This document shows positions 9,245 to 59,857 of a stretch of 64,000 nt of DNA, one piece after another. Numbering within the stretch: position 1 is the first letter of the stretch; each line of letters begins with the position of its first letter. Source of the stretch: Candidatus Omnitrophota bacterium (GTDB taxonomy: Bacteria; Omnitrophota; Gorgyraeia; JABMRN01; RBG-13-46-9); NCBI GenBank assembly GCA_043817155.1, contig JBDRHE010000059.1, forward strand, positions 97-64,096. Reading direction: 5' to 3'. A model generated the notes under the pieces. It worked only from the letters and a program-made list of their open reading frames with translations, made no database searches and was not told the DNA's origin. A program made the position numbers and the translations under genes.

Positions 9245-9249
9245 TTTTG

Positions 9250-10233: not shown

Positions 10234-10264
10234 ATTTCGCGCTCCTTATCGTTTGTTTTATAGA

Positions 10265-11794: not shown

Positions 11795-11801
11795 GTGCGT
11801 T

Positions 11802-12443: not shown

Positions 12444-12444
12444 A

Positions 12445-13365: not shown

Positions 13366-13369
13366 ACTA

Positions 13370-15155: not shown

Positions 15156-15179
15156 GCCTTTCAGTTCTTTATCAAAGAT

Positions 15180-31336: not shown

Positions 31337-31353
31337 CGGTCCTCCCTTACATT

Positions 31354-32865
31354 TTAATCCGGCTTTAATACCCTGCGTAGCAGTTTGCATGCTCCGGAAT
31401 ACGTAAATCTTCTATAAAGTCGATGCACGTGATAGTTTGACCTGAATCTTGAGATCATCATCTTGGTCAATATTTTATATAAGGGTCTATGGCCTTTGTA
31501 AACATTATAATCGAACCACACAAAACCCTTTTGTATATCTTTTTTCGAGAACCCCGGAAGATCCAAAACAGCATGGCACCTTTCCAGCTTAGGATCGGGC
31601 TCTTTTTTTAATAGGCCTCTTTTGCGGCATATCGAATGCAGCTCGGTCCCGGGATACGGAAAGAAGATCGATGTAAAGATCTTATCCGGCAAACAATCCC
31701 TGCTGACCTTCAATGTCTCTTTAAAATCTGCCAGGGTCTCCCCGGGAATCCCTATCAGGGTATAAAAATTGATCTTGAGCCCGCACTTCCTTGCCAGCTT
31801 AGTCGCTCGCACGACATCCTGGTTCGAGTAGTCTCTTTTCAGGACCTGGCGGCGCACTCTTTCGCTTCCCGATTCAAGCCCGATATTCACGAACGTAAAA
31901 TTGGCTCTTTTAAATGCCCTAAAAAGGCTTTCCAGATCCATGTTTGGTGTAATTCTTAGGTTCACACCGAATGAAAGCGGCTCCTCCAGCGTCGCATTTA
32001 GCTTTTCGATTTTCGTGCATAGTTCGAGCGCCCATGCGTTACTGGTCCCGATCGTTTCAACTTCGAGATATATGTTTTTTTTATTCGGGAATCTGCCCGC
32101 AAAGTCCTTTAATTCCATGATAATCGCATCAGGGTTTCTAAATCTAACATAGCGCCCCTCTGTCAGTCTTCGCAGCGCGTGATTGCAGCAATATGGGCAA
32201 TCGAATGGGCACCCGCGACCAAGAAGCATCGGGTATCGCGCGCCTTTCTCTTCCTCTATCCACTCGGTCCACATTCCCCTGTCTGGAAAAGGCAGTTTGT
32301 CAATATCCTGAAAAAAAAGACGCGGTTGGTTTTTTTCCACCTGGTTCCCGTTCTTGATCCATAGATTCGGAATACCTGAAGGCGTGTTATTCTTTTCGAG
32401 CTGCGAAACCAGTTCAAGGGTCGGCTCTTCACCCTCCCCCACACATAACGCGTCAAAACTACCCGATAATACATTTTCGGGGTTAAGCGAAACGTGGTGA
32501 CCCCCTATTAAAAGGTAGATACGCGGGTACTTCGCCTTTGTATTATCGGCTATACGCGCGACAAAATCATATTCGGTACTGACGGCTGTAAAACATATTA
32601 AGCCCGGTCGAAATTCTTCTATACGTTTATCCAGAATAACCTCATTTCTTTTACCAAGGATCCTGCTTAAAACCACAAGCTGCGTTTCGTGACTATTTTT
32701 TTTAAGAACCGAAGATATATAGGAAATACCGAATTGCATCTGTTCGGGTGTCCTAAGCGGTCTTCCGGGAGAAAATATATCATCTACCGAGTAAACAAAC
32801 AGAATCTTCACGTCCGCCGTCCTCCGAATGATAAGGACCCTTCGATAATGGTATCGATGCCCCAC
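31354..32865 (-). CDS. Cobalamin-binding radical SAM enzyme
   Basis: B12-like N-terminus (LIGGHHVSLNPEN); GRGCPFDCPYCCNH. Confidence 0.8.
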   Translation of the reverse strand: MGHRYHYRRVLIIRRTADVKILFVYSVDDIFSPGRPLRTPEQMQFGISYISSVLKKNSHETQLVVLSRILGKRNEVILDKRIEEFRPGLICFTAVSTEYDFVARIADNTKAKYPRIYLLIGGHHVSLNPENVLSGSFDALCVGEGEEPTLELVSQLEKNNTPSGIPNLWIKNGNQVEKNQPRLFFQDIDKLPFPDRGMWTEWIEEEKGARYPMLLGRGCPFDCPYCCNHALRRLTEGRYVRFRNPDAIIMELKDFAGRFPNKKNIYLEVETIGTSNAWALELCTKIEKLNATLEEPLSFGVNLRITPNMDLESLFRAFKRANFTFVNIGLESGSERVRRQVLKRDYSNQDVVRATKLARKCGLKINFYTLIGIPGETLADFKETLKVSRDCLPDKIFTSIFFPYPGTELHSICRKRGLLKKEPDPKLERCHAVLDLPGFSKKDIQKGFVWFDYNVYKGHRPLYKILTKMMISRFRSNYHVHRLYRRFTYSGACKLLRRVLKPD

Positions 32866-35852: not shown

Positions 35853-37668
35853 TCAAATTGTCGTTCAAAATAAGTCCGTCCAGATCTGTTTTGAGAAATA
35901 CTCCCGTAGCATCCTCGGCCGTACGCACAATCGGGTATCCGTGAAGATTAAAACTCGTATTTACGAGCGCGTAGACACCGGTAATTTTTCCAAATTCAAA
36001 TATGAGATCATAATAGAGCGGGTTCTCCCGGCGTGACAATATCTGAGGCCGTACCGTATTGTCGTAAGGATGCTTGGCGGCCTGCAAAGCTCTCATGCCA
36101 AGAGCGCTTGTAGGGAACGCAACCGTCATATAAGGAGAAGGGATGATCTTATTGGACTTTTCTATATATCGGCCCTCATATCCCTTCAATATCACAGGCG
36201 CAAAAGGCATCCAGAAATCCCTGAACTTGATCTTGTCGTTGATCTTCTTTACGTTGTTAAAACACGCCGGATTCGCCAGGATAGACCTGTTGCCGAGAGC
36301 TCTGGATCCGAACTCCATCCCGTAAGTAGCCCGGGCTATAACCATATCTTTTTTCAAAAATGACGCTATTCTCTTAGCGGAGACTTTTGGATAGACAGTG
36401 TAACGACGCGGATCCCGGAAGTGCCTGCTTATCGCATCCTGACACTCTCTCTCGGTAATCTCATATCCCAGATATATCGTGGGGAAGATATCTTTTTTCC
36501 TATCGAAACGACCGTCGTATCTCGAAGCTGTGTGCAAACAGGCGCCTATGCTTGTGGATTCGTCCCCCGGCGAAGGCGAGACGTAGAAATTTTTCACTTC
36601 CTCGGTCCTTCCTATCTCCATATTTGTCTTAACATTCATTGCCGCTCCCCCGCCATAGAAAAGAGAATCCCTCCCGTATTTTCGCAAGATACGCTTTACC
36701 ATAGTGGTAACAAAGGATTCAAAATATAGCTGTATACCGGCCGCTACCTCATCAAATCTGTATCTTTCGAGGATGTCCCTGAAATGAAAATAGCAGTCCC
36801 TCGGCCTGGAATTCGATCTCAATTTCAGATTACGGTCTATCCACAGGGCCTCTTTATATACTTTAAAGACCTCTTCTTTGGCCTTGTCATTTTTGCAGTA
36901 AGGCGCAAGTCCCATAACCTTATACTCGTGTTCCAGCGGCTTCATCCCCAAAAGAAGCGTACAGTATTTATAAAAACGCGCAATATTCAACGAAGAATAA
37001 TGACGCAGGCACTTTATATCATTGCCGGTCCCTATTTCACCGATCATGCAATTCCTGCCGTCACCAAAGGCATCCAGCGTAAGAATAAGATTTTTACTGC
37101 CGCGGTTTCGTATACGCGCAGGCGCCGCCCAGTACGCGTACGCCGCGTGCGCCATATGATGATCGCAGAAAAGGATATTTGCGTGGTATCCAAAATGCGT
37201 ACAGAACTGTTCTTTACGCAACGATTGGTAGAAAGGAACCACATTCCTGTTTCCCCGGGAAGAATCTCTGGCATTTGCGATCTTATAATGTTTTTTACTG
37301 TATCTTTTCAAAATTTTGTCGGTCAAATTTTTTTCTATGCGCTTGGCGAAAAAGTTGCTTTTCCTTCCACCGTACAACACGGGACGCCAATACTTATACT
37401 GCTCCTCTATGTAATCATTCACGGTAAACCTGTGGGTGAAGGAATTGATCCAGAACGGATCGTGATTCACGGTAGAAAAAACGACGTAATCCAGATCTCT
37501 GACTTTTATATCCATACTTTGAAGACAATGCTCTATCGCCCTTTTCGGAAACCCCGACTGGTTTTTCTCTCTGGTAAACCTTTCCTCCTGCGCGGCATAG
37601 ACTATGCGGGAATCCCTGTAAAGGCAGCAGGAGGCATTGTGGTCATCGTATATACCGAGAATTATCAT
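35797..37668 (-). CDS. Carbamoyltransferase, NodU/CmcH family
   Basis: N-terminal ILGIYDDHNASCCLYRDSRIVYAAQEERFTREK matches the NodU/CmcH signature; ~620 aa two-domain size. Confidence 0.8.
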   Translation of the reverse strand: MIILGIYDDHNASCCLYRDSRIVYAAQEERFTREKNQSGFPKRAIEHCLQSMDIKVRDLDYVVFSTVNHDPFWINSFTHRFTVNDYIEEQYKYWRPVLYGGRKSNFFAKRIEKNLTDKILKRYSKKHYKIANARDSSRGNRNVVPFYQSLRKEQFCTHFGYHANILFCDHHMAHAAYAYWAAPARIRNRGSKNLILTLDAFGDGRNCMIGEIGTGNDIKCLRHYSSLNIARFYKYCTLLLGMKPLEHEYKVMGLAPYCKNDKAKEEVFKVYKEALWIDRNLKLRSNSRPRDCYFHFRDILERYRFDEVAAGIQLYFESFVTTMVKRILRKYGRDSLFYGGGAAMNVKTNMEIGRTEEVKNFYVSPSPGDESTSIGACLHTASRYDGRFDRKKDIFPTIYLGYEITERECQDAISRHFRDPRRYTVYPKVSAKRIASFLKKDMVIARATYGMEFGSRALGNRSILANPACFNNVKKINDKIKFRDFWMPFAPVILKGYEGRYIEKSNKIIPSPYMTVAFPTSALGMRALQAAKHPYDNTVRPQILSRRENPLYYDLIFEFGKITGVYALVNTSFNLHGYPIVRTAEDATGVFLKTDLDGLILNDNLIVKNGNTGKEAYGGRKKV

Positions 37669-38303
37669 CTCTTAACCGCGCCCCTTTCAGTCCTTAAGTT
37701 TTTACGCCTTACCATTTTGGCTTTTTTGAAATCTGACGCTGTGTCGATGTCCACAGAAACTTCGTTATCCATAGCGTAATACGCGATCTTTTTCAGGTTA
37801 AATGTTTTTTTCTCTAGCAACTTATCCGATTTTATGATATAGATGGCGCCGTTCGGAGCGTAAGCAAGGCGCCTGTCGGACTTTGCAACACTTATTAAAG
37901 AGTCCACCTTCTTCTTAAAAAAAAGTTTTAGGGCGCGGTCGATATCCGTTGCCGCTCTGAGAGGCGAAGTAGGCTGTAAGAGAATAACTGCGTCGAAATT
38001 CTGCATCTTTTTCCTGAAACGATCTGCCACGTACGCCGCGACCTCTGTGGCGCTTACCGAATCGCCGCAGAGTCTCTTAGGTCGCATAAAAGGCACTGAA
38101 GCCCCGTATCTTTTCGCGATAGCAGAAATTCTCTTACAATCCGTACTAACTACCACTCTATCGAGAAATTTACTCTTTTTCGCCTCCAGGATAGTCCATA
38201 TTACAAGCGGTTTCCCGAAAAAAAGTTTTAGATTCTTTTTCGGCAAGCGCCTGCTTCTACCCTTAGCGGGAATAACGCCCAGTATTGAATTGTTTTTATA
38301 CAC
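37665..38303 (-). CDS. Acylneuraminate cytidylyltransferase family
   Basis: ILGVIPAKGRSRRLPKKNLKLFFGKPLVIWTI P-loop region. Confidence 0.7.
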   Translation of the reverse strand: MYKNNSILGVIPAKGRSRRLPKKNLKLFFGKPLVIWTILEAKKSKFLDRVVVSTDCKRISAIAKRYGASVPFMRPKRLCGDSVSATEVAAYVADRFRKKMQNFDAVILLQPTSPLRAATDIDRALKLFFKKKVDSLISVAKSDRRLAYAPNGAIYIIKSDKLLEKKTFNLKKIAYYAMDNEVSVDIDTASDFKKAKMVRRKNLRTERGAVKR

Positions 38304-38334: not shown

Positions 38335-39399
38335 TTACATCAGCTTCTCTGTATGCTTCTTATATTCTTCCCATTGCCCTATATCGGAATAAGACTTCTG
38401 TGTCACGGGATAAACGCCGACATTCTCCTTCTCTGCCAGTAGAAGCTGTATTAATTCCGTCATGTCAAAATGTCTATCTTCCGGTATATACGAGAGAACT
38501 TCCCTGGACACCAAATACACACCTGTGTTGACGGTAAAGTCCAATTCCGGTTTTTCACGTATCTCCAGCATCCTGCCGTCTTTTTCAAAATTGACAATGC
38601 CATATGGAATTCTGTGGTGCTGAAGCGAGCCGACAACGGTCAGCATATTGCGCCTCTGGTGATGAAAGCGTAAAAGATCAACGTAATCTGCCTCAACAAT
38701 GATATCGCAATTGGAAACAATGAACGTATCTCCCACGGAAGCCGGTAATAGCCTGAGGCTTCCGGCGGTCCCCAGGAACTTCTTTTCCCAAATGTAGTGA
38801 ATTTTATAATTCTTTTCGATGCTATTGAAGTAGGTCTTTATCATCTCGCCTTTATAGTTCAGGGTGACATAAAAGTCCTTTATACCAAACCTGCCGAACC
38901 TATCCATTATCACCTCTATTACCGGCGTCTCCCCTATGGGTATGAGGGGTTTGGGAAGTATCCTTGTAAACGGACCAAGCCTCTCACCGATTCCGCCGGC
39001 CATTATGACAACGGGTACTTCTACATCTCCGTAAGCCATATTTTTGTCCCTGAATACGTCACTCCAGCACAAAATGTCCACAACCTTTCTTTCGCTCCCG
39101 GTAACTACCGGAACCACCTCAACCATATTTTCCGCCATTAGTTTTTTCACACCGAAGATACTGTATTTTTTTTGGGTGACGAAAACCGGCTTCCTGTTGA
39201 AACAATCGGTGATCCGGTCTTCGAAAGCTGCATTCTTTAACAACTTTCTTCTTATGTCCCCGTCCGAAAGGGATCCTATTAATGAACCGCCTTTGTTGCA
39301 TACAAAAAGAACTTTAAGCCCTGCTTCGTCGATTTTCTTCAGAGCCTCTTTTATGGTCGCTTTAGATGAGATCGATATCTTACTTATTATTTTTTTCAT
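38335..39399 (-). CDS. CBS-domain pair + sugar-1-phosphate nucleotidyltransferase (PtmE-like architecture)
   Basis: N-terminal CBS-like region; VVIMAGGIGERLGPFTRILPKPLIPIG nucleotidyltransferase motif. Confidence 0.7.
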   Translation of the reverse strand: MKKIISKISISSKATIKEALKKIDEAGLKVLFVCNKGGSLIGSLSDGDIRRKLLKNAAFEDRITDCFNRKPVFVTQKKYSIFGVKKLMAENMVEVVPVVTGSERKVVDILCWSDVFRDKNMAYGDVEVPVVIMAGGIGERLGPFTRILPKPLIPIGETPVIEVIMDRFGRFGIKDFYVTLNYKGEMIKTYFNSIEKNYKIHYIWEKKFLGTAGSLRLLPASVGDTFIVSNCDIIVEADYVDLLRFHHQRRNMLTVVGSLQHHRIPYGIVNFEKDGRMLEIREKPELDFTVNTGVYLVSREVLSYIPEDRHFDMTELIQLLLAEKENVGVYPVTQKSYSDIGQWEEYKKHTEKLM

Positions 39400-40647: not shown

Positions 40648-41334
40648 TTACGAGGACCTTTCTTCCCCTATCAGCGTCATCGGCCGTATAACCCCTTTGG
40701 TAACATACGGAGTATTGTAACGCTTATCGAAATAAATCAGAACTTTTTCGGGTTTTATACCACTTTTTGCGTACCAGCACAGGTCGTTCCGTCTTGACGC
40801 GTCTAGACCCTCGGCGTAATGACAAGCAATAGCGTTCCGCGGTCTATCCTCCGCGGGCAGACAGTAATTCTTCTTGGTATCAAACAACCTGCGCTTAATA
40901 AGAACGACAAATTTCCTTAAGTGGTCACGGACTTTTTTTTTCAATAAATGGGCATGAGCTACATAATAAACCGCCCGGTTGTGCATAACTAATGGCACAT
41001 CTTCGAAAGACCAGCAGTTTTCTAACTCCGGCAATATACCTTCTCTCGGTATTGATACTGACTGCTCCCTCAAAGGTATATGCTTACCGGCGCGCCTATA
41101 CCATTGTATAACACATGCCTGGCGCACAAACGGAAATATCTCCTTTTTTATGGAGTATTGAAAATACAGCATGACCCTTTGGCTGGGCATCTTTTCAGCC
41201 ACTTCTTTATACGCATGCGAAGATGTAATGATATCCGATATGCGCAGTACATAGTCGAATGTTATGCGCTCGACTTCGTATCGAAGCGCAACACCTTCTT
41301 TGCATTTCATTTCTCCAAGATCATACTTTAACAT
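40648..41334 (-). CDS. Hypothetical protein (228 aa)
   Basis: No recognised motif. Confidence 0.3.
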   Translation of the reverse strand: MLKYDLGEMKCKEGVALRYEVERITFDYVLRISDIITSSHAYKEVAEKMPSQRVMLYFQYSIKKEIFPFVRQACVIQWYRRAGKHIPLREQSVSIPREGILPELENCWSFEDVPLVMHNRAVYYVAHAHLLKKKVRDHLRKFVVLIKRRLFDTKKNYCLPAEDRPRNAIACHYAEGLDASRRNDLCWYAKSGIKPEKVLIYFDKRYNTPYVTKGVIRPMTLIGEERSS

Positions 41335-42349
41335 TCAAGCTTTCCTTTTTTATTCCGGTCAGAGACGGGTAGGCTTCGACCCCTTCACCCGTTTTTTGCC
41401 AGTGATCATATCGCTCCTTTAACAACCCGTTCTCGAGGAGGATCTCATCCAGCCTTTCCCGGAAGGACCTTCTTATCTTAATCCCCGATAACTCATATCC
41501 AAAATGTTGCATAACTTTGTTGTTAACCAATTCGGCAAAGAATATTTCAAAAGGGTCTGCGCTCTTCTTCCATCTTCCGGCAGGGGCGCTGGATACAGTG
41601 TTCATTTTTTTATTAAAAGACGAGTCGCCGGTCCACCGGCGCCCCTGTCTATCCTTAAACTGCTTTACATCCAGCATAGCAGGCTCAAACTTTATCCTTA
41701 AAAATTTACAGAGTCTTTTTGCCTCGGTAAGTGGATTGTCGACAAAATTCTCATATTTCAGGATGTAATAGTTGTCTGGGTCAAGTGTCTCTCTGTACTC
41801 AACAGCCTTTTGGAATGAATGCTGTGAACAAAATACTGAATCAAGATAAGAATATCCTGGTTCGTACGTCATTTCTCTATAGCTACACAACACATCTCGC
41901 GGGTCCCTGAGAACATGAATCACTTTTCCCGAAGGAAACATCTGTAAAAAATTCGGGATCTGCCCCCAGCAAACATTCGTTTTTTCTCCCCATCCGGTTA
42001 CTATCTTCGCACAATCAGATGCCAGGGCTTTCATCACAATATCATAGATGTGCTTGTATTCGATTTTTTTGAGCTTCCGTATTTCGCTTATGGCTTTATC
42101 GAGATTAAATTCCATTTTCCATCTTTTTAATATGCGATCGTGGATTTCTTGTACAAGTCTCATAGCTTGATCGGCATCCCTTATCGGCTCGTATTTGCCG
42201 TAAGAAAACCTCATAAAATGGACGGAATCATATGTGACCCAAAGCTTAGAATGATTGTTAAGCATGCGACTGACAAGGGTTGTGCCGGAACGATATATGC
42301 CGGTAATAAATATTCTTGTTTCAAAACCAGAGATCATCTGTCGCCTCAT
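41321..42349 (-). CDS. Sulfotransferase (PAPS-dependent)
   Basis: 5'-PSB-like IFITGIYRSGTTLVSRML and 3'-PB-like VIHVLRDPRDVLCSY motifs. Confidence 0.75.
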   Translation of the reverse strand: MRRQMISGFETRIFITGIYRSGTTLVSRMLNNHSKLWVTYDSVHFMRFSYGKYEPIRDADQAMRLVQEIHDRILKRWKMEFNLDKAISEIRKLKKIEYKHIYDIVMKALASDCAKIVTGWGEKTNVCWGQIPNFLQMFPSGKVIHVLRDPRDVLCSYREMTYEPGYSYLDSVFCSQHSFQKAVEYRETLDPDNYYILKYENFVDNPLTEAKRLCKFLRIKFEPAMLDVKQFKDRQGRRWTGDSSFNKKMNTVSSAPAGRWKKSADPFEIFFAELVNNKVMQHFGYELSGIKIRRSFRERLDEILLENGLLKERYDHWQKTGEGVEAYPSLTGIKKESLNVKV

Positions 42350-43686
42350 TTTTTCGGTTTCACAATTTTAACGAATAGACTACCGTACCTGTCATTTGCA
42401 GCCACACCGATTGTGTCAATATCATCGGCATGTATCGAGTCATAATCAAAGGTGTATGACCATTTATCCAAAGAAGTGTCAAAATCAAAATTGTCGTGAA
42501 TAAAGCGACCCGTCTTCGTTTTTACAGAGAGGAAAGGTTGTGGGCCAAAAACTTTTCCCTCTACCGTTTCTACTTCCAGAAATGCCCTTTCGGCACTATC
42601 TTTAAAAGATACTTTAAGCTCAAGGGGTTCAAAGCTATTTCCGTCGCAATAAATCGCGGATCTAAACGCATCTACTGCTTCGCAAAATTTGAATTTGACA
42701 TCGGGATATCTTTTGCTTACATGACTGATTATATCTCTTGCAAAATCAACTTCATACGCCATATTGCGAAAATCATGGTTGGCGATACCCATGATCGTCG
42801 GTTTTCCGTCGCGGGCTCTTAAGAAGGCTTTTTCGACTTCATCAGGCGTAAGCTCCCTGCCCCTGGTTTTTATATCGAGGCATCTGCATATCCACCGCCT
42901 GCAGTTACCGGGAATTTGATAATTATCGTGGTTTGGTTGGTAAATAGACCAGTCATCCGGCGCCAACCTCCAGTCGCCGGACCGGCCGCCGGCTATGTCA
43001 ATTTGGTTCTCATGAACATCGTTCTCTTCCCGATATGCCCAGTTACTTGCGTCAAAGGGTACCCACTGTTCCAGGAATAGATGGCTGTCCGGCCGCTCTG
43101 TTTGAAAGCCTGCTCGAAACGCAACCGGAAACCAATTTCGTTCAATAATTCTTCTGCAAAGAATTTCATAAAGATACGGCGAATTCACATAACTTGTAGC
43201 GCAGCGATGAGCCTCTTTATACACGGACATTGGGTGAAAATGCCAATGTATTCCGTCTTGACTCGATCCGGTTCTTTCTTTCATCTGTTTGTAGTGGTCG
43301 AATATTTTATGGAAGCCCATATCGCGCCGCCTCGGATTGTGCGCGTAATTAACGTGGTCCACACAATACCAATTATATACCCATCCGTTCCCGAATGAAT
43401 CGAGCGCCTTATTTCTGAACTCCGGACTCATGACTTTTATAAGCATTGAGTCGATCTTCCCCCACGTATCGTTATAACATAAATTTCGGCTGCTAAAAAT
43501 GCTTGCGATAACGTCCGTATTTTTTCCGAAATCGATACATTTATCCTGAATGCGTTTTAAGTTTTCCCTTGTTGGCTCCAACGTTATGCCGAACATTTCA
43601 TGCAATCGTTGAAATGTTGCCTCTAAAGACTCATATAAAGGGCCTTCCGCATCTACACAGTGAATGATATAAACGATCTTTTCCAT
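42346..43686 (-). CDS. Hypothetical protein (446 aa), possible carbohydrate-active enzyme
   Basis: No confident motif; His/Asp-rich segments (DHVNYAHNP, WHFHP). Confidence 0.3.
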   Translation of the reverse strand: MEKIVYIIHCVDAEGPLYESLEATFQRLHEMFGITLEPTRENLKRIQDKCIDFGKNTDVIASIFSSRNLCYNDTWGKIDSMLIKVMSPEFRNKALDSFGNGWVYNWYCVDHVNYAHNPRRRDMGFHKIFDHYKQMKERTGSSQDGIHWHFHPMSVYKEAHRCATSYVNSPYLYEILCRRIIERNWFPVAFRAGFQTERPDSHLFLEQWVPFDASNWAYREENDVHENQIDIAGGRSGDWRLAPDDWSIYQPNHDNYQIPGNCRRWICRCLDIKTRGRELTPDEVEKAFLRARDGKPTIMGIANHDFRNMAYEVDFARDIISHVSKRYPDVKFKFCEAVDAFRSAIYCDGNSFEPLELKVSFKDSAERAFLEVETVEGKVFGPQPFLSVKTKTGRFIHDNFDFDTSLDKWSYTFDYDSIHADDIDTIGVAANDRYGSLFVKIVKPKK

Positions 43687-43802
43687 AGCTACTTAAGAGA
43701 TCTTGTGTTAATAAACGTGTCGAATGTTCGCTTGTGACATCCTCCTCACAAAATCAGCTTCTCTCTTTCTTTGCTGTATTTTCGGCTCTTCAAACGTTAC
43801 TT

Positions 43803-45032
43803 TTACCGTGCCATATCTTCATAAACTGTTCTTCTCAATTTCCATTTGCCGTCTTTGTTTTCCCATAAATGGGGCGATCGAAATTTTTCACAAAGTTCCA
43901 AAAATTCCTCTTTCTCCATGCCGATATACTCCATTACTTCGTCAAAATACTTTATAGGAAATTCTCCGTCGAACCTCCGGACAAGGGCCTTTCCTTCCTC
44001 CCTTGTAAGGTGCTTGTTGCGGATCTCCTGGGAAGCATCATAGGTAGCCCGGCCGATACCGAACTTTATATAGGTTGCGTAATACTGCAATCCGTCTATG
44101 CGATCGTCCAGACTGTTATATTTACTGTAAGTCCCTTCTGTCCTTTCCGGGTTTGCCGCGAAACCGGTATGCTCAACGGCGTAATAATAGGACTCCTGGG
44201 GCGTCCATTTTAAGTAATAACCGAGATAGTTCACCTTGATTTCGGATCGTTCCAACTGCTTATAGTCAGCCGGCAGATAGGTCTGTATATCATTCGCTGT
44301 TAAGCCGTGCTTTTCCATTAACTCTTTAACGCTTGCGCCGGCAATGTAGATTTCATCTAAATGCCGCATTGTATAATACGATTTGCCCCTGAGAGACGTA
44401 TTGGTATCGGCAATGGGATTGCCGTATTCGGCTTCATTTTCGCCGTAAAAAACAAGCAGAATGCCGAGCCTGGTCGCGAGTTTCGGCGCCAGATTTTTTT
44501 GGCCCAGAATAAACGGTTGAAAAGGGTGTAACAGATTTCTGATAGCTAACCTGGTTAACAGAGCGTGAACCCTGCCGTTGTAATTAAAGGATATATTGTC
44601 AAAGCCGCCTACGTCGATCCAGTTTCTAAAATTCTTCCATCCGATCTCTGTGTAAATGATAGGCGGCCAGGTTACTGTAAGCGGGTGCATGCCATATTTA
44701 TATTTTAGAATATGCGCCGCGTATGCGCTGTCTTTTCCTCCGCTTCCGGGCACGATACAATCATAATTACCGTCTTTCCTTCTATATTTTTCGAGAAGTC
44801 TTAAAAGCTCTTCTTCGCGGGTTTTCCAATCAATCTCTTTCTTGCGTTCGGCAAAGCGACACGCGTCGCATACGCCTTCTTTATCAATAAAAAGTGTCGG
44901 CTTCTTCTGAGTTACCGTGTGCTTAAATTCAGGCACTGACGAGGGCCTTTGGTTCGACATAACACAGCGCTTACAAAACTTTACAACTTTCGGTAAGCCG
45001 TATTTTGCCTCGAGTTTTTGCGTTTCTGCCAT
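43803..45032 (-). CDS. N-acetyl sugar amidotransferase (WbuX/PseA/AglX-like, PP-loop ATPase)
   Basis: N-terminal Zn-ribbon CKRCVMSNQRP...CDAC; PP-loop CIVPGSGGKDS. Confidence 0.8.
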   Translation of the reverse strand: MAETQKLEAKYGLPKVVKFCKRCVMSNQRPSSVPEFKHTVTQKKPTLFIDKEGVCDACRFAERKKEIDWKTREEELLRLLEKYRRKDGNYDCIVPGSGGKDSAYAAHILKYKYGMHPLTVTWPPIIYTEIGWKNFRNWIDVGGFDNISFNYNGRVHALLTRLAIRNLLHPFQPFILGQKNLAPKLATRLGILLVFYGENEAEYGNPIADTNTSLRGKSYYTMRHLDEIYIAGASVKELMEKHGLTANDIQTYLPADYKQLERSEIKVNYLGYYLKWTPQESYYYAVEHTGFAANPERTEGTYSKYNSLDDRIDGLQYYATYIKFGIGRATYDASQEIRNKHLTREEGKALVRRFDGEFPIKYFDEVMEYIGMEKEEFLELCEKFRSPHLWENKDGKWKLRRTVYEDMAR

Positions 45033-45034
45033 CT

Positions 45035-45718
45035 CTATCTATTCTCCTTTTTTCTGATCAATTCAGCCCAATTTTGGTATATCTTAAGGCCCTGCCCGGC
45101 GCTTCTTTCCGGATGAAACTGACAGGCAAAAATATTATCACGCTCAAGACTTGAGCAATACCTGATGCCCTCATAGGATGTGTATGATAACACGCTATCA
45201 TGCGTATCCGGCGCCACAAAGTAGGAGTGCACAAAATACATGAATTCCCCATCCCGGATGCCCCTTAACAGCGAGTCCTCCCAATAATCACCCTTTTTAT
45301 CATCGGGCCTCTTTAACTTATTCCATCCCACCTGCGGCACCTTCATGCCTTTATTGGAATCCCTTCCGGAAGAAAAGTTGACAACGGAACCTTTTATTAT
45401 ATTCAGGCCCTCGTGAACACCGAACTCTTCACTTTTCGTAAGCAAAAGTTGCATCCCTAAACATATACCCATAAAAGGTCTCCCCGTACCGATAAAGTCT
45501 TTGATCGGGCCTGCCAGATCCAATTTTTTAATATTACGCATGGCAATTCCAAACGCTCCCACGCCCGGCAATATTGCCGAGTCGCTGTTTACTATACCGG
45601 CGCTATCTGAAGTAATAAAGGCGCTTAGCCCCGCGTGTTCACAGGCCCGCTTTATGCTGAACAGATTGCCCATACCGAAATCTATTATAGCAACGTTTGA
45701 CTTAGAATTTACCGGCAT
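45035..45718 (-). CDS. HisH-like class I glutamine amidotransferase (WbuY/AglY-like)
   Basis: VAIIDFGMGNLFS; GVGAFG; catalytic ICLGMQLL; FHPE. Confidence 0.85.
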   Translation of the reverse strand: MPVNSKSNVAIIDFGMGNLFSIKRACEHAGLSAFITSDSAGIVNSDSAILPGVGAFGIAMRNIKKLDLAGPIKDFIGTGRPFMGICLGMQLLLTKSEEFGVHEGLNIIKGSVVNFSSGRDSNKGMKVPQVGWNKLKRPDDKKGDYWEDSLLRGIRDGEFMYFVHSYFVAPDTHDSVLSYTSYEGIRYCSSLERDNIFACQFHPERSAGQGLKIYQNWAELIRKKENR

Positions 45719-46589
45719 AAACGTCTTTCCCCTTTAGCGCTTCCCTGCATGGTATCCCGTGTTCGGACAGGAAGAACTTTATCTCGCTTAAGTTTGTCGG
45801 TCTAATTTTAGAAAAGATACGTCCGCTCTTTGCATACTCGAGATTTCCTTCGAGAGTATAATCGCCTTCATTAATTTTTCTGCGTTTGATGAAATCGTAA
45901 TGCAGAATTGAGGCAAAGCTTACTGCGTCAGCCTTCCCGTCAATAATTACATCTTTAATGTGGCCGGTTTGGCCTGCGCCCCCACAGGCTATGACCGGGA
46001 TAGACACTGTCTCCGAGATTTTACGCGTTAACTCCAGGTCGTAACCGATCCCCGTTCCTTCGCGATCAACAGAGGTCAGCATGATCTCACCGGCGCCAAG
46101 TTCGGTAACCCGCAAGGCCCACTGGCATACATCCATTCCGGTATGCTCTCTGCCGTTGTCGGTAAAGGCCTGGTAGCTGCCATCCGGTTGCTTGATAGCC
46201 TCTATAGAAATAACGATGGTTGATGATCCGAATTCCCTTGAGGCTTCACGAATGATGTCCGGGTTATTGATAGCCGCGGTATTAAGACTTACCTTATCCG
46301 CGCCGGCACGCAAGACCTCTTTTATGTCCCGAAGAGTCCTTATCCCCCCGCCGACCGTCAGGGGTATAAAAATGTCCCTGGCTGTCTTCTCGATTATCCG
46401 ATTCAAACTGTTGCGCCCGTATAAGCTGGCGACAACATCCATATAGATAAGTTCGTCCGCTCCGGTTTCGTAATAATACTGCGCGAACTCTTCGGGTTTG
46501 CCCAGAACCCTCAGGCCTTCCAGGTGAATGCCCTTGACTAAATTGGGCCCTTTAATATCCAGACGCGGTATAATTCTTATGTATTTCAA
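45702..46589 (-). CDS. HisF-like cyclase subunit (WbuZ/AglZ-like)
   Basis: RIIPRLDIKG...DELIYMD...TVGGGIRTLRDIKEVLRAGADKVSLNTAA is the HisF (beta/alpha)8 signature. Confidence 0.85.
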   Translation of the reverse strand: MKYIRIIPRLDIKGPNLVKGIHLEGLRVLGKPEEFAQYYYETGADELIYMDVVASLYGRNSLNRIIEKTARDIFIPLTVGGGIRTLRDIKEVLRAGADKVSLNTAAINNPDIIREASREFGSSTIVISIEAIKQPDGSYQAFTDNGREHTGMDVCQWALRVTELGAGEIMLTSVDREGTGIGYDLELTRKISETVSIPVIACGGAGQTGHIKDVIIDGKADAVSFASILHYDFIKRRKINEGDYTLEGNLEYAKSGRIFSKIRPTNLSEIKFFLSEHGIPCREALKGKDVYAGKF

Positions 46590-47308
46590 AACCCGCTTTC
46601 CTTATTTAAACGTGAATCTATAACTGCTTTGGCTAACGTAAGATCTTTCCTGGTATCGATATCTACAACCGTTTCGTTTACAATCATCGCTTTAATCCTG
46701 TCGCCGTAAATCGAGTAAAGAAACCCCGCCTTATATGGAATTTCTTTTGTAAATTTTTTATAAAATTTCTGCGCTTCAAACACGAGTGTATGGCCGTCAT
46801 GAATCATAAGCTTAGGCAATGCCTGCCTTCTGTAATGCGCTTCCCTCTTCATGGGTAGTTCGCGGTCAGTAAATTCAAACATCCATTCCGGATGATACTT
46901 CTCGATTCTTTGCATACTGATGACGGCGTCATAACTCCGATTTTTTCTTAAAAAAACAATGGCATCATAAAATAATTGTGGATACCGCGTCGGAATATTT
47001 CCGTATACGAGACTGCAATATCGGTACCCGGCCCCCTCTCTCTCGATAGCATCTGCCAGTACGTCATCGATCCTGCTTGCGTCACCGCACAACTTGCTTG
47101 GCCTGCTGATGTATGGAATTTTCTTCCTTTTGCAATAACTTATTACCCGCTCAATATTTGTCGATACGACCGTTTTTACCTCCTTCCCCAGCGACAAAGA
47201 GTAATCGATAGCGTATTCGGCCGCCATTCTGCCCCTTATTCCTCTGGTGCACTTGTCTCTTAATCCCTTGCTGCCTTTTCTTGCGCACACAACTGACAAT
47301 GTTTTCAT
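46586..47308 (-). CDS. Acylneuraminate cytidylyltransferase family
   Basis: LSVVCARKGSKGLRDKCTRGIRGRMAAEYAI P-loop-like region; weaker than the other paralogs. Confidence 0.55.
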   Translation of the reverse strand: MKTLSVVCARKGSKGLRDKCTRGIRGRMAAEYAIDYSLSLGKEVKTVVSTNIERVISYCKRKKIPYISRPSKLCGDASRIDDVLADAIEREGAGYRYCSLVYGNIPTRYPQLFYDAIVFLRKNRSYDAVISMQRIEKYHPEWMFEFTDRELPMKREAHYRRQALPKLMIHDGHTLVFEAQKFYKKFTKEIPYKAGFLYSIYGDRIKAMIVNETVVDIDTRKDLTLAKAVIDSRLNKESGF

Positions 47309-47319
47309 AATAAATTCCC

Positions 47320-48780
47320 CTAAAAGATATCGATTCCGCCATGCTCGGCACGGTGCTTTAATAATGCTTCGTCCTTAAAATAATCATCAGCCATGTCTCC
47401 GAAAAGATTCGTCAACTTGGCCATGTAACTTTCCTCGGTCTCCGGTTTGATTCGCGAGCGTACCTCGGATATCATCTCTTCTCTTTTGGAAATAAGTTCG
47501 GTATCTGTAAACACATTGGTTAAATTAATAAGAAAATCTCTGGCGTCCCCCATGGACATCACAAAATCATGTATTCGGTCCTTTTTGATTCGGCCTGTTC
47601 TGAGAGCGTACTCAAAAAGTTGCGTTCCCGGGTACGGCACGGCAAACATAATGGATTTTAGTGGTATATTATTTCTTACGCAAAACTCTACGGTTTTGCG
47701 GCATGATTCAACGTCCTCTTCCGGCATCCCTATCATAAAGCTTATAGGTAACATCATCTTATATCGCCTGTTTAACACGACCGCGTTCTCCATCTGGGCT
47801 ATCGTCACGTTCTTCCCCATAGACGCGAGCATCCCTTGAGAGCCGGATTCAAATCCATAAGATATGGACACACATCCGGCGCTCTTCATCCTTCGCACAA
47901 TATCATCGTCAACAAGGTTAACGCGCCCGGTACAGGACCACAAAAGTCCCGGAACGTTTCTCTCGATCTTCTCACAGAACTCATATATGCGTTTCTTTCC
48001 CATCAAAAACTCGTCATCCTGAAAAGAGATAAAGTCCACTTTATATTGTTTCCTTAAATACACAAGCGCCTCGACTATAAAATCAGCCGAATGCGCCCTG
48101 AAATTTCTACCCCAGGGTTGATAACAAAATACGCAGTCGTATGGGCATCCCCGGCTTGAGATAAAATCTATATCCCTTCCAAGACCTACCACGGGATTGG
48201 AAAGGTAAATTTCCATCGGAAGTAAATCGTAAGCCGGCAGATCGCTTTCGATATCGAGGTCCTGCAGTAGCTCCTGTTTCCCGGAACATATTATTTCGCC
48301 GTCAATTTTAAAGTAAAACCCCTTTACATTCGTCAATTCGCTAAAGGCGCCTCCTCCGGCCAGTCCTTCGATAAGGTCAACCATAGCCTTTTCACCTTCA
48401 CCCGCGCAAACAATATCTACATTCGAATGACGCAGCAAGACCTCGGGTACCGACATTGCCACGCTGCCACCCGCGATCACTATTGCCTCCCGATTTATTG
48501 CTTTTATAATGCCGGCATACTCGACAATAACCCTGTAAACCGGTATTAGACCTCCCATAAGGACTATATCAAAAGGCATCGAATTCAAAATTGACTTTAG
48601 CTCCGTTTTTGTATAGCGATGCGCGTTAGCGTCTATAAACGTTGGAGTTATACCCGTCTTCTTTCGAATAACATTCGCCAGAATAGCCAGGCCATGAGGT
48701 ATGTGCCTCGGTTTATCGTTTAAACGTATCGGAGGATTAATAATTATTATTCTGGGTAATTTTTTATTCAGTTTTGTCAT
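47320..48780 (-). CDS. Cobalamin-binding radical SAM enzyme
   Basis: B12-like N-terminus (IVLMGGLIPVYR...VIAGGSVAMSVPE); SSRGCPYDCVFCYQPW. Confidence 0.8.
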   Translation of the reverse strand: MTKLNKKLPRIIIINPPIRLNDKPRHIPHGLAILANVIRKKTGITPTFIDANAHRYTKTELKSILNSMPFDIVLMGGLIPVYRVIVEYAGIIKAINREAIVIAGGSVAMSVPEVLLRHSNVDIVCAGEGEKAMVDLIEGLAGGGAFSELTNVKGFYFKIDGEIICSGKQELLQDLDIESDLPAYDLLPMEIYLSNPVVGLGRDIDFISSRGCPYDCVFCYQPWGRNFRAHSADFIVEALVYLRKQYKVDFISFQDDEFLMGKKRIYEFCEKIERNVPGLLWSCTGRVNLVDDDIVRRMKSAGCVSISYGFESGSQGMLASMGKNVTIAQMENAVVLNRRYKMMLPISFMIGMPEEDVESCRKTVEFCVRNNIPLKSIMFAVPYPGTQLFEYALRTGRIKKDRIHDFVMSMGDARDFLINLTNVFTDTELISKREEMISEVRSRIKPETEESYMAKLTNLFGDMADDYFKDEALLKHRAEHGGIDIF

Positions 48781-50546
48781 TTTGATTCCAACAGTTGCAA
48801 CCTTGCCATCTGGTTAAAATGGCCGCCTATCTCAATTAGCTCGGAATACGCCCCTTCTTCGACTACTTTTCCGTTTTTTAACACATATATATAGTCGGCA
48901 TTAGCGATCGTTGAAAGACGATGGGCTATTACTACAATGGTGGTCTCCTTGGCGATTCTCTCAACAGCCTGTTGAATTAACCGTTCGGATCGCGTATCCA
49001 GCGAACTTGTAGCCTCATCTAGAATCAGAAGAACCGGCTCCCTAAGAATGGCCCTGGCAAGCGCTATTCTCTGGCATTGGCCGCCTGAAAGACAAATACC
49101 GCGATCCCCAACCATTGTACCGTAGCCCTTGGGAAACTCGCTTATGAATTCATCCGCATTGGCTAAAACGCAAGCGCGTTTGATACCTTCGTTTGTTGCG
49201 TCCTCCTTAGCCCAGAGAAGATTATCTTTGATGCTCATATTAAAGAGAACGCTCTCTTGAGGTACATAACCTATCCTTTTGCGATAAGAATCGATATTGA
49301 AGTCCCGTAAATCAACGCCGTCAAACATGATTCGGCCTTCTCTTGGCTCATTAAACCCCATGATCATATCAATAAGTGTTGACTTCCCTGAGCCTGATTC
49401 GCCTACGATCGCTACCATTTTTCCTTTTGGAATTTTTATACTAATATCTCTCAAAGCCAAATCATGATCAGGATAGGCAAATGAAACATTCTCAATGTAT
49501 ATAATTTTCTCGAATTTTATAAAAGAACGTTCACCTGATCCTTGCTTCAAGATCTCAGCCTCCGTCTTGAGCTTTTTAATCTGTTCGTAACTGGGACAAA
49601 AATTTGCTAACGCATTATTTTGAGTAATTATGGTTGCCAACAGCGGAATAACATATCGCAATGCCAAGAAGATAACGCCTATGTCCGATAAGGGTACCAT
49701 CAATCTTTTAGAAACCAAGAAACCTATTACAATGACCAATACACCAACTGGTTCATAAATAAGCGGGATCGACTCTTTAAGGGTATTCGCCTTCAGTACA
49801 ATTTTGCGTAAGGTATAAAGAGAGCGAGCGGTCTTTTCTATATTTTTTTTCTGATTTCCGAAACCAATTATCAGTTTAGCCAAACTTAAGCTCTCCTGCA
49901 TAACATGTGTTAATTCATTGGAACTGTTAGTCGCTTCCTTGCCAAGATTGTATCCTATGCCACTTAAATAATAAATAGGTGCAGCGAATAACAAACTCAC
50001 CATTAAGCTAATGGAAGTTACCTGCCAAGAGAGGTAAAATGGTATACTGAGATAGAATATTATCTGCAGAAAACAAGAAAGAAGCATTACCGCCGATCTA
50101 AAACCCTGCCCTACCATCTCCGTTTCGCGTGTCAATGTGTTAAACAGTGTCCCTTGCCTGTTACTGCTGAAAAATAACCATCGTGCCGAAAATATCTTCT
50201 CGAGAGTTTCGACAAAAATAGTGCGCCACACAACATTCCAAGTCTTTAGCGCCGTCCATCGTGCCAAAAGATAAAATGCATTTCTCAGGATCTGGAAGAG
50301 TAGAAAAAAAACAAGATAAGTACCCAGCGTAAGTGGTAATCCGAGGCTCTTGAATAATGTTACGATTTTTTGCGTAAGAACACTGATGCCTTGAGCTCCA
50401 GGGGACACAAAATAGTCAATAATGGGCGCAATGGAACAAAAAGACAACACCCCAAAGACGCTTACCGCAAGCAAAACCAGAGTATTAAGAATGAACAAAA
50501 AAGGAAATTTTTTAAATAGTTCGTAAAAGAATATAAGTACCTTCAT
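48777..50546 (-). CDS. ABC transporter, fused permease/ATPase (second MsbA-like exporter)
   Basis: Walker A GESGSGKST; signature LSGGQCQRIALARA; Walker B LLILDEATSSLD. Confidence 0.9.
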   Translation of the reverse strand: MKVLIFFYELFKKFPFLFILNTLVLLAVSVFGVLSFCSIAPIIDYFVSPGAQGISVLTQKIVTLFKSLGLPLTLGTYLVFFLLFQILRNAFYLLARWTALKTWNVVWRTIFVETLEKIFSARWLFFSSNRQGTLFNTLTRETEMVGQGFRSAVMLLSCFLQIIFYLSIPFYLSWQVTSISLMVSLLFAAPIYYLSGIGYNLGKEATNSSNELTHVMQESLSLAKLIIGFGNQKKNIEKTARSLYTLRKIVLKANTLKESIPLIYEPVGVLVIVIGFLVSKRLMVPLSDIGVIFLALRYVIPLLATIITQNNALANFCPSYEQIKKLKTEAEILKQGSGERSFIKFEKIIYIENVSFAYPDHDLALRDISIKIPKGKMVAIVGESGSGKSTLIDMIMGFNEPREGRIMFDGVDLRDFNIDSYRKRIGYVPQESVLFNMSIKDNLLWAKEDATNEGIKRACVLANADEFISEFPKGYGTMVGDRGICLSGGQCQRIALARAILREPVLLILDEATSSLDTRSERLIQQAVERIAKETTIVVIAHRLSTIANADYIYVLKNGKVVEEGAYSELIEIGGHFNQMARLQLLESK

Positions 50547-50570
50547 CCCTTTATCTTTCTATCTTCAAAG

Positions 50571-51515
50571 TTAGTCGATATCCATAAGATCCGTATACAC
50601 TTCCTGAAGAAGTGACGCGTTCGGATAATAATCCAAGAAATCCTTTACTGTCGAACGGTAGTCATTTTTATTTGTATCGGAAAAATAGTTTTTCCAAATA
50701 CCGATTTTTCCTGTCCAGCCACGCGGATACTTGGTTGAATTACTGCTGTTGTTCTCGGTATGCTTTTTGGCACCTTTTACAATTACGTTACACTTCTTCG
50801 CGCAATCCTGACTCACTGGAAATCCAACCAAGAAATTAGACATCACATTCAACGTCTCCTCTGTTTTTAAGACAAAGTCCTCGTATTTCAGTATCAGTGA
50901 CCTTTCTGCATTCCTGAAACGCAACCAATCAACCATCCAGCTGAGTGTCGCATTTAGATATCCTTCCCGTATCAAACATTGGAGGGATTCATTTATATCA
51001 ACTCCGTTTCTAAAAACCCATCCAGGAACCGGATAGACATTAGTCTTTACCCATCCGTTCTTTTCGTGCTCCTCTGCCGAAATAAGATAATCGCAAATGT
51101 TGCAATATAATGCAACAATCTGATCTGCAGGATGCCTTAACAGTATAATGTACTTAACTCCCAACAACTCTAAAACCTTCAGATTCTTGCCTGTCGCGCG
51201 TGTGTGAAATTTTAATACCCCTCCTTTCGGAAAGTCTTTTACCAATTCGGGCCGTAAATCCGAATCCCTGTTGGCGAGCATATATTTCGCATAGGACCTT
51301 GATTTCTTACTGACCATAGACAGAATCTCGGCGACGCATGAACCGATAACCGAAGAGGCGGACTTTGGTATAGCCGCTATAATTGTGAGGCGATCTTTAA
51401 AATAATTCTCTTTTAATTTTTTATTAGCTTCTTTGTTGGCTAGCAGATCCCTAATGGCCGCAATAACAGAAAACGGCAGATGTCTCATCTCGGGGATCTG
51501 GTTAGATCTTTTCAT
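50571..51515 (-). CDS. Putative sulfotransferase-like protein
   Basis: Degenerate 5'-PSB-like IIAAIPKSASSVIGS and 3'-PB-like YIILLRHPADQIV; tentative. Confidence 0.35.
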   Translation of the reverse strand: MKRSNQIPEMRHLPFSVIAAIRDLLANKEANKKLKENYFKDRLTIIAAIPKSASSVIGSCVAEILSMVSKKSRSYAKYMLANRDSDLRPELVKDFPKGGVLKFHTRATGKNLKVLELLGVKYIILLRHPADQIVALYCNICDYLISAEEHEKNGWVKTNVYPVPGWVFRNGVDINESLQCLIREGYLNATLSWMVDWLRFRNAERSLILKYEDFVLKTEETLNVMSNFLVGFPVSQDCAKKCNVIVKGAKKHTENNSSNSTKYPRGWTGKIGIWKNYFSDTNKNDYRSTVKDFLDYYPNASLLQEVYTDLMDID

Positions 51516-52732
51516 CCCAATAACTCCTTATTCTGACGTAAAAATTCCGAGCCAATCCGCAAAAGAAAGAGTTTATTTAGGTAGCTGGGTTTAAATAGAG
51601 ACCAGAAGCTACGCTGGAGCTCCTCATCCTCTTCTGTGGTTCTCCATCTTCCGTTCAAACGATCATCCATCTCACGAACCATATCAGCGATCTCCTCCGG
51701 TGTATTGTCAACCACCTCTATCCCTTCCTCAGCAAAATGCTCGGTCATAATGAACCTGCCCACACCGGAATCTATGACCTCCCGGAATGTTAATAAACGG
51801 TCCTCGCCTTTCCTACGATACTTCTTGGCAATTAAGAGCCCCCTGGAATCCCATGTAGGAATATACTCAAGGGGAGCTAGGTTTGACCACGCTATCGGCT
51901 TTCGAAAAATCCATGGAACTGTAACAAGGCCCGAGGCAGAACTTATAAAGAATCTGCAATTGGCGCATAGATAGATATCCAGAAAATCGTCTCTACACTT
52001 TGTCGCATAATCTATAATTCTCGGGTTCTTAACTCTTAGTGGCGCATTAACAGCGGCGCCCATTCTCACAACAAAGTATCCACGCATGACCAACTCTTCG
52101 GCCGTCAAGATATAATTTTCTACATCCACATCCTTGTAATCCTGATAGCTTGAATCAAGCTTTGGATGAATTTTGTCAAGATAGGCCGAATCCCTTGCAT
52201 GAAAACAGACAAAGGGAACACCTTGTGGGATTCCCAACTCTCTCAACTTCTTCTCCCCAATCTCAGTCTCCTTTTTGGTAAAGAAGAGGTGGGGCGATCT
52301 CAAGCAGTAACCACTTATATCCCTATCCGTAGGCAATTCGATGGTGTGCAATTTTCCACCCGGCAAAAATCTGTTAACCTTATCTAGAACGTGTGCATAC
52401 TGAAATATATGTATGTGGCGGCCCAGCATCCTCTTAAGCTGTTGATTGCATACCTCATACATAGACTGTAAATAGAAGATGTCTATCGTTCTCTTGCCGT
52501 ACTCATCATCATCACGTTTGCAAAGATAATGTTCCGTTTGAGCGGCGAAGTGGCCGATTCTACTGCTTGCCAGAAATCCAAAACGCATAGTGATGATAGG
52601 GCGCAATAGCCGCACAATGATAACGATTAAGAATGCCGGAGGCATCGATAATAGGATAGCGCACTTTTGCCTAAAGACACGCAATCCACCATTGGTTATC
52701 ATTCTTATTTGGCGCTTAAAAAACTCTGTCAC
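51512..52732 (-). CDS. Hypothetical protein with N-terminal TM helix, possible GT-B-like glycosyltransferase
   Basis: Hydrophobic N-terminus; no firm motif. Confidence 0.3.
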   Translation of the reverse strand: MTEFFKRQIRMITNGGLRVFRQKCAILLSMPPAFLIVIIVRLLRPIITMRFGFLASSRIGHFAAQTEHYLCKRDDDEYGKRTIDIFYLQSMYEVCNQQLKRMLGRHIHIFQYAHVLDKVNRFLPGGKLHTIELPTDRDISGYCLRSPHLFFTKKETEIGEKKLRELGIPQGVPFVCFHARDSAYLDKIHPKLDSSYQDYKDVDVENYILTAEELVMRGYFVVRMGAAVNAPLRVKNPRIIDYATKCRDDFLDIYLCANCRFFISSASGLVTVPWIFRKPIAWSNLAPLEYIPTWDSRGLLIAKKYRRKGEDRLLTFREVIDSGVGRFIMTEHFAEEGIEVVDNTPEEIADMVREMDDRLNGRWRTTEEDEELQRSFWSLFKPSYLNKLFLLRIGSEFLRQNKELLG

Positions 52733-59820: not shown

Positions 59821-59857
59821 AAGGCCCTCTCTTCTCTTTAAAACCATTATCCTTTTG

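Follow-up and report, generated by a model that had tools for sequence, protein, structure and literature searches.

What is made by a row of three genes in which an N-acetyl sugar amidotransferase (NASAT) stands next to homologs of the histidine enzymes HisH and HisF? The question is raised by positions 43803-46589 of a 64,000-nt stretch of DNA from an uncultured Omnitrophota bacterium (referred to below as the window; all statements on what is present in or absent from the window are limited to these 64 kb). An original prediction had described this row as a WbuX/HisH/HisF-type triad beside a CMP-sugar synthetase and had suggested an acetamidino ulosonic acid as its product. We report that the three genes quite likely encode a glutamine-dependent NASAT/HisH2/HisF2 amidotransferase complex that would act on a CMP-activated sugar of the legionaminic acid type and yield a sugar of the Leg5Am7Ac type for use in a surface glycan. 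The triad itself is an unremarkable orthologous copy of a system that is already known and common, and it is its surroundings that are more unusual.

The interval holds exactly three open reading frames (ORFs), all on the minus strand and with the same coordinates as given earlier, and a NASAT, a HisH-like glutaminase (HisH2) and a HisF-like barrel (HisF2) do stand in a row as had been predicted. Given the E-values, chance is excluded as the source of the hidden Markov model (HMM) matches reported below. The genes are closely packed: that of the upstream cytidylyltransferase (CT1) overlaps HisF2 by 4 nt, HisF2 and HisH2 overlap by 17 nt, and HisH2 and NASAT are 2 nt apart. Each of them has a Shine-Dalgarno-like motif, and HisF2 starts with TTG behind the Shine-Dalgarno sequence AAGGAAAG. 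A promoter and terminator scan of 41000-51600 gave fewer sites than were obtained in shuffles, and operon boundaries are therefore not callable; a tRNA scan found no tRNA gene.

To place the triad among known lineages we used discrete characters together with the curated NCBIfam HMM cut-offs. The NASAT matches TIGR03573, the WbuX subfamily model, with 361.6 bits (E 4.8e-108, profile positions 1-343 of 344), which is above the cut-off of 203.2 bits. The motifs that define the family are an SGGxDS PP-loop and a Zn-binding CxxC...[GN]xCxxC (PMC10607449). Both were found as had been described from the sequence, i.e. SGGKDS at residues 97-102, and CKRC at residue 20 together with G-V-CDAC at residue 55 (C20/C23 and C55/C58). 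One solved structure was matched, PDB 8WEX (546 bits, 60% identity over 383 aa), which is the crystal structure of the Legionella pneumophila NASAT, LpNASAT (PMC10607449), and all four Cys of the window protein align with those of 8WEX. Between its two Cys pairs LpNASAT carries a segment of approximately 15 residues that is missing in WbuX, WbpG and the homologs from Campylobacter, Vibrio and Methanococcus maripaludis (as described in PMC10607449). In the window NASAT a segment of the LpNASAT type is present, and the Cys-pair spacing, 31 residues, is the same in both proteins.

Related stretches, at least 560 of them, came out of a scan of species-representative genomes, and we took the 80 best as comparison loci. 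Their NASATs are 66-76% identical to the window NASAT, and their hosts belong to Omnitrophota, Planctomycetota, Acidobacteriota, Chloroflexota, Bacteroidota, candidate-phyla-radiation groups and others. The Cys-pair spacing was surveyed in 81 close relatives (type A, see below) and in eight paralogs of lower identity from the same loci: it is 31 or 32 residues in 79 of the 81, and 16 residues in seven of the eight paralogs (17 in the eighth). This spacing, a discrete character shared with LpNASAT, places the window NASAT in the Legionella/Leg5Am lineage and not with WbuX, WbpG, PseA or AglX.

Could the glutaminase and the barrel be a genuine imidazole glycerol phosphate synthase that adjoins the NASAT by chance? 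HisH2 passes the HisH equivalog model TIGR01855 (189.7 bits, cut-off 105.4; Pfam GATase 59.8 bits), a match which histidine-pathway HisH would give as well, and its Cys-His-Glu triad is intact (GICLGMQ nucleophile motif at residue 84, HPE at 202-204, PGVG oxyanion strand). HisF2 (Pfam His_biosynth, 217.6 bits) comes near the cut-off of the hisF model TIGR00735 with 277.0 bits versus 294.55. Moreover, the HisF lineage to which it belongs, labelled type A in this analysis and having 77 full-length members among the comparison loci, keeps the ammonia-gate residues R5/E46/K99/E167, the interface residue D98, D11 and both phosphate-binding motifs. Against this, all 77 type-A proteins have E in place of the catalytic D130, and 74 of the 77 have E in place of D176 (relative to a manually entered Thermotoga maritima reference; PDB alignments, too, show a D-to-E replacement), and a conserved insertion of approximately 30 aa (about residues 232-262), a candidate docking element, precedes the last helix. 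All four type-A proteins tested (window, L002, L016 and L082) miss the hisF cut-off with 277-285 bits. The HisF-HisH-NASAT order is conserved in 76-78 of the 80 genomes across many phyla, HisH2 adjoining NASAT in 78 of the 80 loci, and Pfam and NCBIfam scans of the window found no his-operon gene other than the HisH/HisF-like pair. Given the residue changes, the conserved gene order and the lack of his genes in the window, we reject a histidine-pathway HisH/HisF, a reading that we regard as extremely improbable, in agreement with the expectation that the pair does not serve histidine biosynthesis.

The same four type-A proteins also fall short of the two models for acetamidino-forming HisF proteins, with 273-279 bits for WbuZ (TIGR03572, cut-off 299.7; window 274.8) and 203-212 bits for AglZ/HisF2 (NF038364, cut-off 310; window 204.9). 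Second HisF copies in some of the same genomes behave differently: three of them (L025, L043, L021) exceed the AglZ cut-off with 364-394 bits, and two of these (L025, L043) exceed that of WbuZ as well. The residue signature of the second copies is the opposite of type A, with L or V in place of D11 and an unchanged D130, and the NASAT paralogs beside them have the 16-residue Cys-pair spacing. Because HisF2 misses both cut-offs, the triad is, judged on these characters, of the Legionella-type lineage and not WbuXYZ or AglXYZ proper. For the name WbuX/HisH/HisF type this is a qualification: the TIGR03573 match stands, and the barrel misses the WbuZ and AglZ cut-offs. Two discrete markers hence separate Leg5Am-type systems from WbuXYZ/AglXYZ, namely a Cys-pair spacing of 31 versus 16 residues, and a HisF2 with D11 kept and D130E versus D11 lost and D130 kept. 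Two variants of the HisF2/HisH2 pair were also seen: a single 558-aa HisF-HisH fusion adjoining NASAT on a 'Ca. Wujingus californicus' contig (L136, 15303-16979), and a 55-aa HisF remnant after CT1 that is 77% identical to residues 4-59 (L081, 977-1144).

What, then, is the sugar? In the relatives the typical neighbourhood comprises LegB, LegC, LegH, LegI, LegG, a PtmE-like CBS+NTP-transferase and a cytidylyltransferase, followed by the triad. Among the 63 loci that span 15 kb or more, 59 have a NeuB/LegI gene no further than 10 kb from the triad, and 49 have three or more of LegB/C/I/G. Specifically, in the Ca. Scalindua locus L002 the LegB, LegC, NeuD, NeuB and NeuC proteins pass the NCBIfam cut-offs, and the genes for a PtmE-like protein, a B12-binding radical SAM enzyme, CT1, HisF, HisH and NASAT follow in that order. 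This synteny with legionaminic acid operons elsewhere, like the gene identities, the catalytic motifs and the lineage, was observed directly.

The gene directly upstream of HisF2 had been taken for a CMP-sugar synthetase. That CT1 is a cytidylyltransferase stood up, both by PF02348 and by the nucleotide-binding and Mg motifs: at least 97% of 120 aligned family members keep the CMP-sugar synthetase residues R10/S13/K19, R161-Q162 and D216xD218. It is a divergent one, however, with 28.2 bits for PF02348 (gathering score 22.6) and, for PseF (TIGR03584), 39 bits, far below the cut-off of 205.7. The examined part of the L002 leg operon shows a single cytidylyltransferase, to which CT1 is 59% identical, and the Joint Genome Institute (JGI) gives some CT1 homologs at 53-60% identity the name CMP-N,N'-diacetyllegionaminic acid synthase. 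Because its ortholog is the sole cytidylyltransferase in the part of that operon that was seen, CT1 is probably a CMP-legionaminic-acid-type synthetase, as judged from sequence.

With these parts, the following reaction can be proposed; its chemistry, the channelling, the substrate and the timing at the CMP level are modelled on what is known of the family. Glutamine would be hydrolysed by HisH2 to give ammonia, and the HisF2 barrel, docked on HisH2, would channel the ammonia to the NASAT. The PP-loop of the NASAT would use ATP, giving AMP and pyrophosphate, to activate (adenylate) the carbonyl of the N-acetyl group of the sugar, and displacement of the activated oxygen by ammonia would yield an acetamidino (acetimidoyl-amino) group. 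The likeliest substrate would be a legionaminic-type 5,7-diacetamido nonulosonic acid in CMP-activated form, the CMP link being made by the upstream CT1, and a surface glycan would receive the product, a sugar of the Leg5Am7Ac type. In Pseudomonas aeruginosa HisF2 binds the NASAT WbpG in pull-down experiments (PMC11445079), which by analogy supports the ammonia-delivery model.

Several observations weigh against this assignment, and the missing core genes are the main caveat as regards the substrate. A tblastn search of the 64-kb window with the Scalindua Leg proteins found no LegC, LegH, LegI (NeuB) or LegG (NeuC), and with LegB only a generic SDR protein at 26% identity. Since NeuB, NeuC, LegC and LegH have no match in the window, the core nonulosonic acid pathway is either encoded elsewhere in the genome or absent. 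The window thus carries a tailoring and activation block apart from the core pathway genes, with a cytidylyltransferase adjoining the triad. The status of CT1 is marginal in terms of bits, its alignment with NeuA (1EYR) is weak (E 2.9e-4), and LegF- or NeuA-specific models gave no match for it. The window also has RmlD-like, SDR epimerase and GFO/IDH/MocA enzymes that could supply another N-acetyl sugar. To our knowledge, in vitro activity has been shown for no NASAT of this lineage, and the use of ATP by LpNASAT was inferred from the structure only (PMC10607449).

Part of the same evidence would suit a triad that forms the acetamidino group on a sugar other than a nonulosonic acid, for instance by converting UDP-L-FucNAc to FucNAm or by acting on a 2,3-diacetamido uronic acid, with the sugar supplied by other enzymes of the cluster. 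The lack of NeuB, NeuC, LegC and LegH is what such a system would leave, the SDR epimerase/dehydratase, the RmlD-like reductase and a GFO/IDH/MocA protein with a weak UDP-GlcNAc 3-dehydrogenase match could make the substrate, and TIGR03573-type NASATs act on several different sugars across the family (PMC10607449). We nevertheless consider it unlikely: the NASAT has the LpNASAT insertion, which is missing from WbuX and WbpG and from the homologs of Campylobacter and M. maripaludis, its closest relatives stand in legionaminic acid operons, the adjoining CT1 is of the CMP and not of the UDP/dTDP type, and HisF2 stays under WbuZ and AglZ cut-offs that second-copy paralogs of other genomes pass. 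The suggestion of an acetamidino ulosonic acid is backed by the orthology with LpNASAT and by the leg operons that flank the triad elsewhere, with any nonulosonic acid synthase lying outside the window.

The comparison with L. pneumophila is the closest. Its O-antigen is built from Leg5Am7Ac, and the window shares with its lipopolysaccharide (LPS) locus the 60% identical NASAT with PP-loop, four Zn-binding Cys and 15-residue segment, and a neighbouring CMP-sugar synthetase gene. ORFs 26 and 27 of that locus are, we presume, HisF and HisH homologs. ORF 28 (lpg0748) is a homolog of ptmG, which is reported to convert CMP-Leg5Ac7Ac to CMP-Leg5Am7Ac, i.e. to act at the CMP-sugar level (PMC3766260); we infer that LpNASAT is the product of ORF 28, an identity stated in neither PMC10607449 nor PMC3766260. 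The two loci differ in that neuA, neuB and neuC are neighbours in L. pneumophila, whereas the window is devoid of NeuB- and NeuC-type genes, and in that the window cytidylyltransferase is of a divergent subfamily and paired with a B12-binding radical SAM enzyme; moreover, one host is an uncultured Omnitrophota bacterium and the other a gammaproteobacterial pathogen.

More distant systems have the acetamidino logic in common with the window. Campylobacter PtmG (Cj1324) and PseA (Cj1316c), which form acetamidino groups on CMP-legionaminic and pseudaminic acid for flagellin glycans, share the NASAT family and the proposed reaction. We know of no dedicated HisH/HisF partner genes alongside them. 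Unlike the window NASAT, the Campylobacter homologs have no insertion of the LpNASAT type according to PMC10607449. The three-protein architecture and TIGR03573 are shared with WbuX/WbuY/WbuZ (Escherichia coli O145, FucNAm) and WbpG/HisH2/HisF2 (P. aeruginosa O5, ManNAc3NAmA), which use UDP-hexosamine derivatives, unlike the CMP-nonulosonic acid proposed here. AglX/AglY/AglZ, responsible for the N-glycan acetamidino group of M. maripaludis, follow the same triad logic on a uronic acid, not a nonulosonic acid; they differ from the window in that its HisF2 is under the NF038364 cut-off and its source bacterial. Finally, with the histidine-pathway enzymes the window proteins share the folds, the glutaminase triad, the gate residues, D98 and the phosphate-binding motifs, and HisF2 departs from them in D130E, the insertion, the linkage to NASAT and the lack of a his operon.

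Table 1. Genes of the triad and its neighbourhood in the window, with the identity of the corresponding proteins of Ca. Scalindua locus L002 to those of the window
Feature	Position	Strand	Basis	Identity, L002
NASAT, Legionella type	43803-45032	-	409 aa; TIGR03573; 60% identity to 8WEX; PP-loop ATP pyrophosphatase, Zn-binding tetracysteine	74%
HisH2, HisH-type class I glutaminase (HisH2/WbuY-like), predicted ammonia source	45035-45718	-	227 aa; TIGR01855, Pfam GATase	53%
HisF2 (type A), HisF-type (beta/alpha)8 barrel, presumed ammonia channel	45702-46589	-	295 aa; His_biosynth	71%
CT1, divergent CTP_transf_3 cytidylyltransferase	46586-47308	-	240 aa; PF02348; directly upstream of HisF2	59%
B12-binding radical SAM enzyme	47320-48780	-	Pfam B12-binding + Radical_SAM; adjoins CT1	65%
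U446, 446-aa conserved protein	42346-43686	-	no Pfam/NCBIfam match; directly downstream of NASAT	
Sulfotransferase paired with U446	41321-42349	-	Sulfotransfer_3, 95.1 bits; homolog in L082 block	
PtmE-like protein (CBS + NTP_transferase), usual companion of legionaminic acid operons	38335-39399	-	Pfam CBS + NTP_transferase	
CT2, second cytidylyltransferase, of the type preceding HisF2 in most related loci	37665-38303	-	CTP_transf_3, 81.7 bits; PseF, 136.4 bits (below cut-off)	

The window has two further genes of the kind found with the triad elsewhere (Table 1). Homologs of CT2 are present in 65 of the 80 triad loci, as are homologs of the PtmE-like protein, the latter mostly two genes upstream of HisF2.

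Which features make the setting more unusual than the triad? The B12-binding radical SAM gene and CT1 (46586-48780) form an adjacent pair that is conserved within legionaminic acid operons of several phyla. Radical SAM orthologs at 65-71% identity adjoin CT1 in L002, L082 and L135, pairs of lower identity are found in L060, L119/126 and L136, and a pair is also present on a JGI contig; furthermore, 54 CT1 homologs lie on contigs of 5 kb or more, and for 28 of them a contig of exactly equal size carries a top radical SAM homolog. The nearest PDB entry of the radical SAM enzyme is AprD4, a dehydratase (86 bits). A literature search gave no paper that joins radical SAM enzymes with nonulosonic acid pathways.

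On the other side of the triad, the homologs of U446 number at least 1860; the 120 best are 53-75% identical and all annotated as 'hypothetical'. In the 45 metagenome loci sampled for its neighbourhood, U446 is part of nonulosonic acid clusters: 26 of these loci have a sulfotransferase nearby, 20 have NeuB and 13 the triad. U446 follows NASAT in L033 and belongs to the same block in L082 and L037. An AlphaFold2 model (predicted local distance difference test score 82) has an N-terminal alpha/beta domain with many invariant His and Asp and a C-terminal beta-sandwich, and a PDB fold search with this model gave no match for the N-terminal domain. In the Omnitrophota locus L135 (1223-4914), genes for adenosine 5'-phosphosulfate kinase and ATP sulfurylase, i.e. 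for synthesis of 3'-phosphoadenosine 5'-phosphosulfate, and for a sulfotransferase stand directly before the leg genes, which fits with the recurring sulfotransferases by the triad and hints at sulfated glycans.

These neighbours raise the possibility that the triad acts on another or a modified nonulosonic acid, either of the pseudaminic type or a legionaminic derivative already altered by the B12 radical SAM enzyme, with a product that has not been described. The conserved pairing of radical SAM enzyme and CT1 within leg operons and the recurrence of U446 and the sulfotransferase by the triad speak for it, as do the five CTP_transf_3 paralogs, 12 radical SAM genes and approximately 10 methyltransferases of the window. 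However, about 70 of the 80 type-A loci are without an orthologous radical SAM gene nearby, which indicates that the triad does not depend on this enzyme; the case for such a sugar is one of gene content; and the similarity of the radical SAM enzyme to AprD4, its nearest solved structure, is low. We judge this reading to be more improbable still than a sugar outside the nonulosonic acids, and prefer an unmodified legionaminic-acid-type substrate for the triad.

A separate matter is what the neighbourhood as a whole might build. The B12 radical SAM enzyme, CT1, HisF2, HisH2, NASAT, U446 and the sulfotransferase form a seven-gene block (41321-48780) that is conserved whole in L082. We tentatively raise, as a possibility with the balance rather against it, that in Omnitrophota and scattered other lineages this module builds an undescribed legionaminic acid derivative, in which a 5-acetamidino group would be combined with a C-methylation or deoxygenation that the radical SAM enzyme carries out on the CMP-sugar, and possibly with sulfation. 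The L082 block (8598-15937 of CP070672.1, 32-74.5% identity to the window) lies on a 4.2-Mb contig labelled 'Thermoplasmata archaeon', which points to horizontal transfer or to a mislabelled assembly. An archaeal origin was ruled out for the window itself: three of its proteins are 100% identical to NCBI proteins from a 137,462-bp contig of one Ca. Omnitrophota metagenome-assembled genome (two of them ABID09_04510 and ABID09_04490), and its origin is therefore bacterial.

With respect to the triad, our data add an Omnitrophota example to a module known from at least 560 related stretches, and little is changed for the triad as such. There is a practical consequence for annotation, since Legionella-type HisF2 falls just under the hisF, WbuZ and AglZ cut-offs and HisH2 passes the histidine model: genes of this type will be mislabelled or left vague by automatic annotation. 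The radical SAM/CT1 pair, and the U446 family together with the sulfotransferase, are candidates for new chemistry on the sialic-acid-like sugars of bacteria, which shape surface recognition in environmental as well as host-associated microbes.

The whole window is one co-directional gene array with all genes on the minus strand, and it is rich in tailoring enzymes. Six of the 12 radical SAM proteins have a B12-binding domain, the methyltransferases (approximately 10) are of class I, and one of the five CTP_transf_3 paralogs is fused to GT2 (24016-25383). In addition there are two sulfotransferases, one carbamoyltransferase, two MsbA/PglK-like ABC exporters, GT2 enzymes, a PMT_2-type transferase and a split transketolase; no nonulosonic acid synthase was found in the gene array of the window. 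The gene at 32808-34841 (minus strand) encodes a 677-aa protein that matches no Pfam family and has homologs at 39-44% identity directly after the NASAT region in the Omnitrophota loci L135 and L136 (homolog region in L136, 18281-20311). In L135 (17820-21440) the homolog is followed by GFO/IDH/MocA and Ldh_2 genes; in the window, members of these two families (30128-31390 and 29081-30118) lie 1.4-3.7 kb downstream of the 677-aa gene, after a B12 radical SAM gene. Finally, the ORFs at 58071-59303, 59158-59973 and 59858-60907 (58071-60907, minus strand) overlap by 116-146 nt as listed, and their listed TTG/GTG starts are probably too far upstream.

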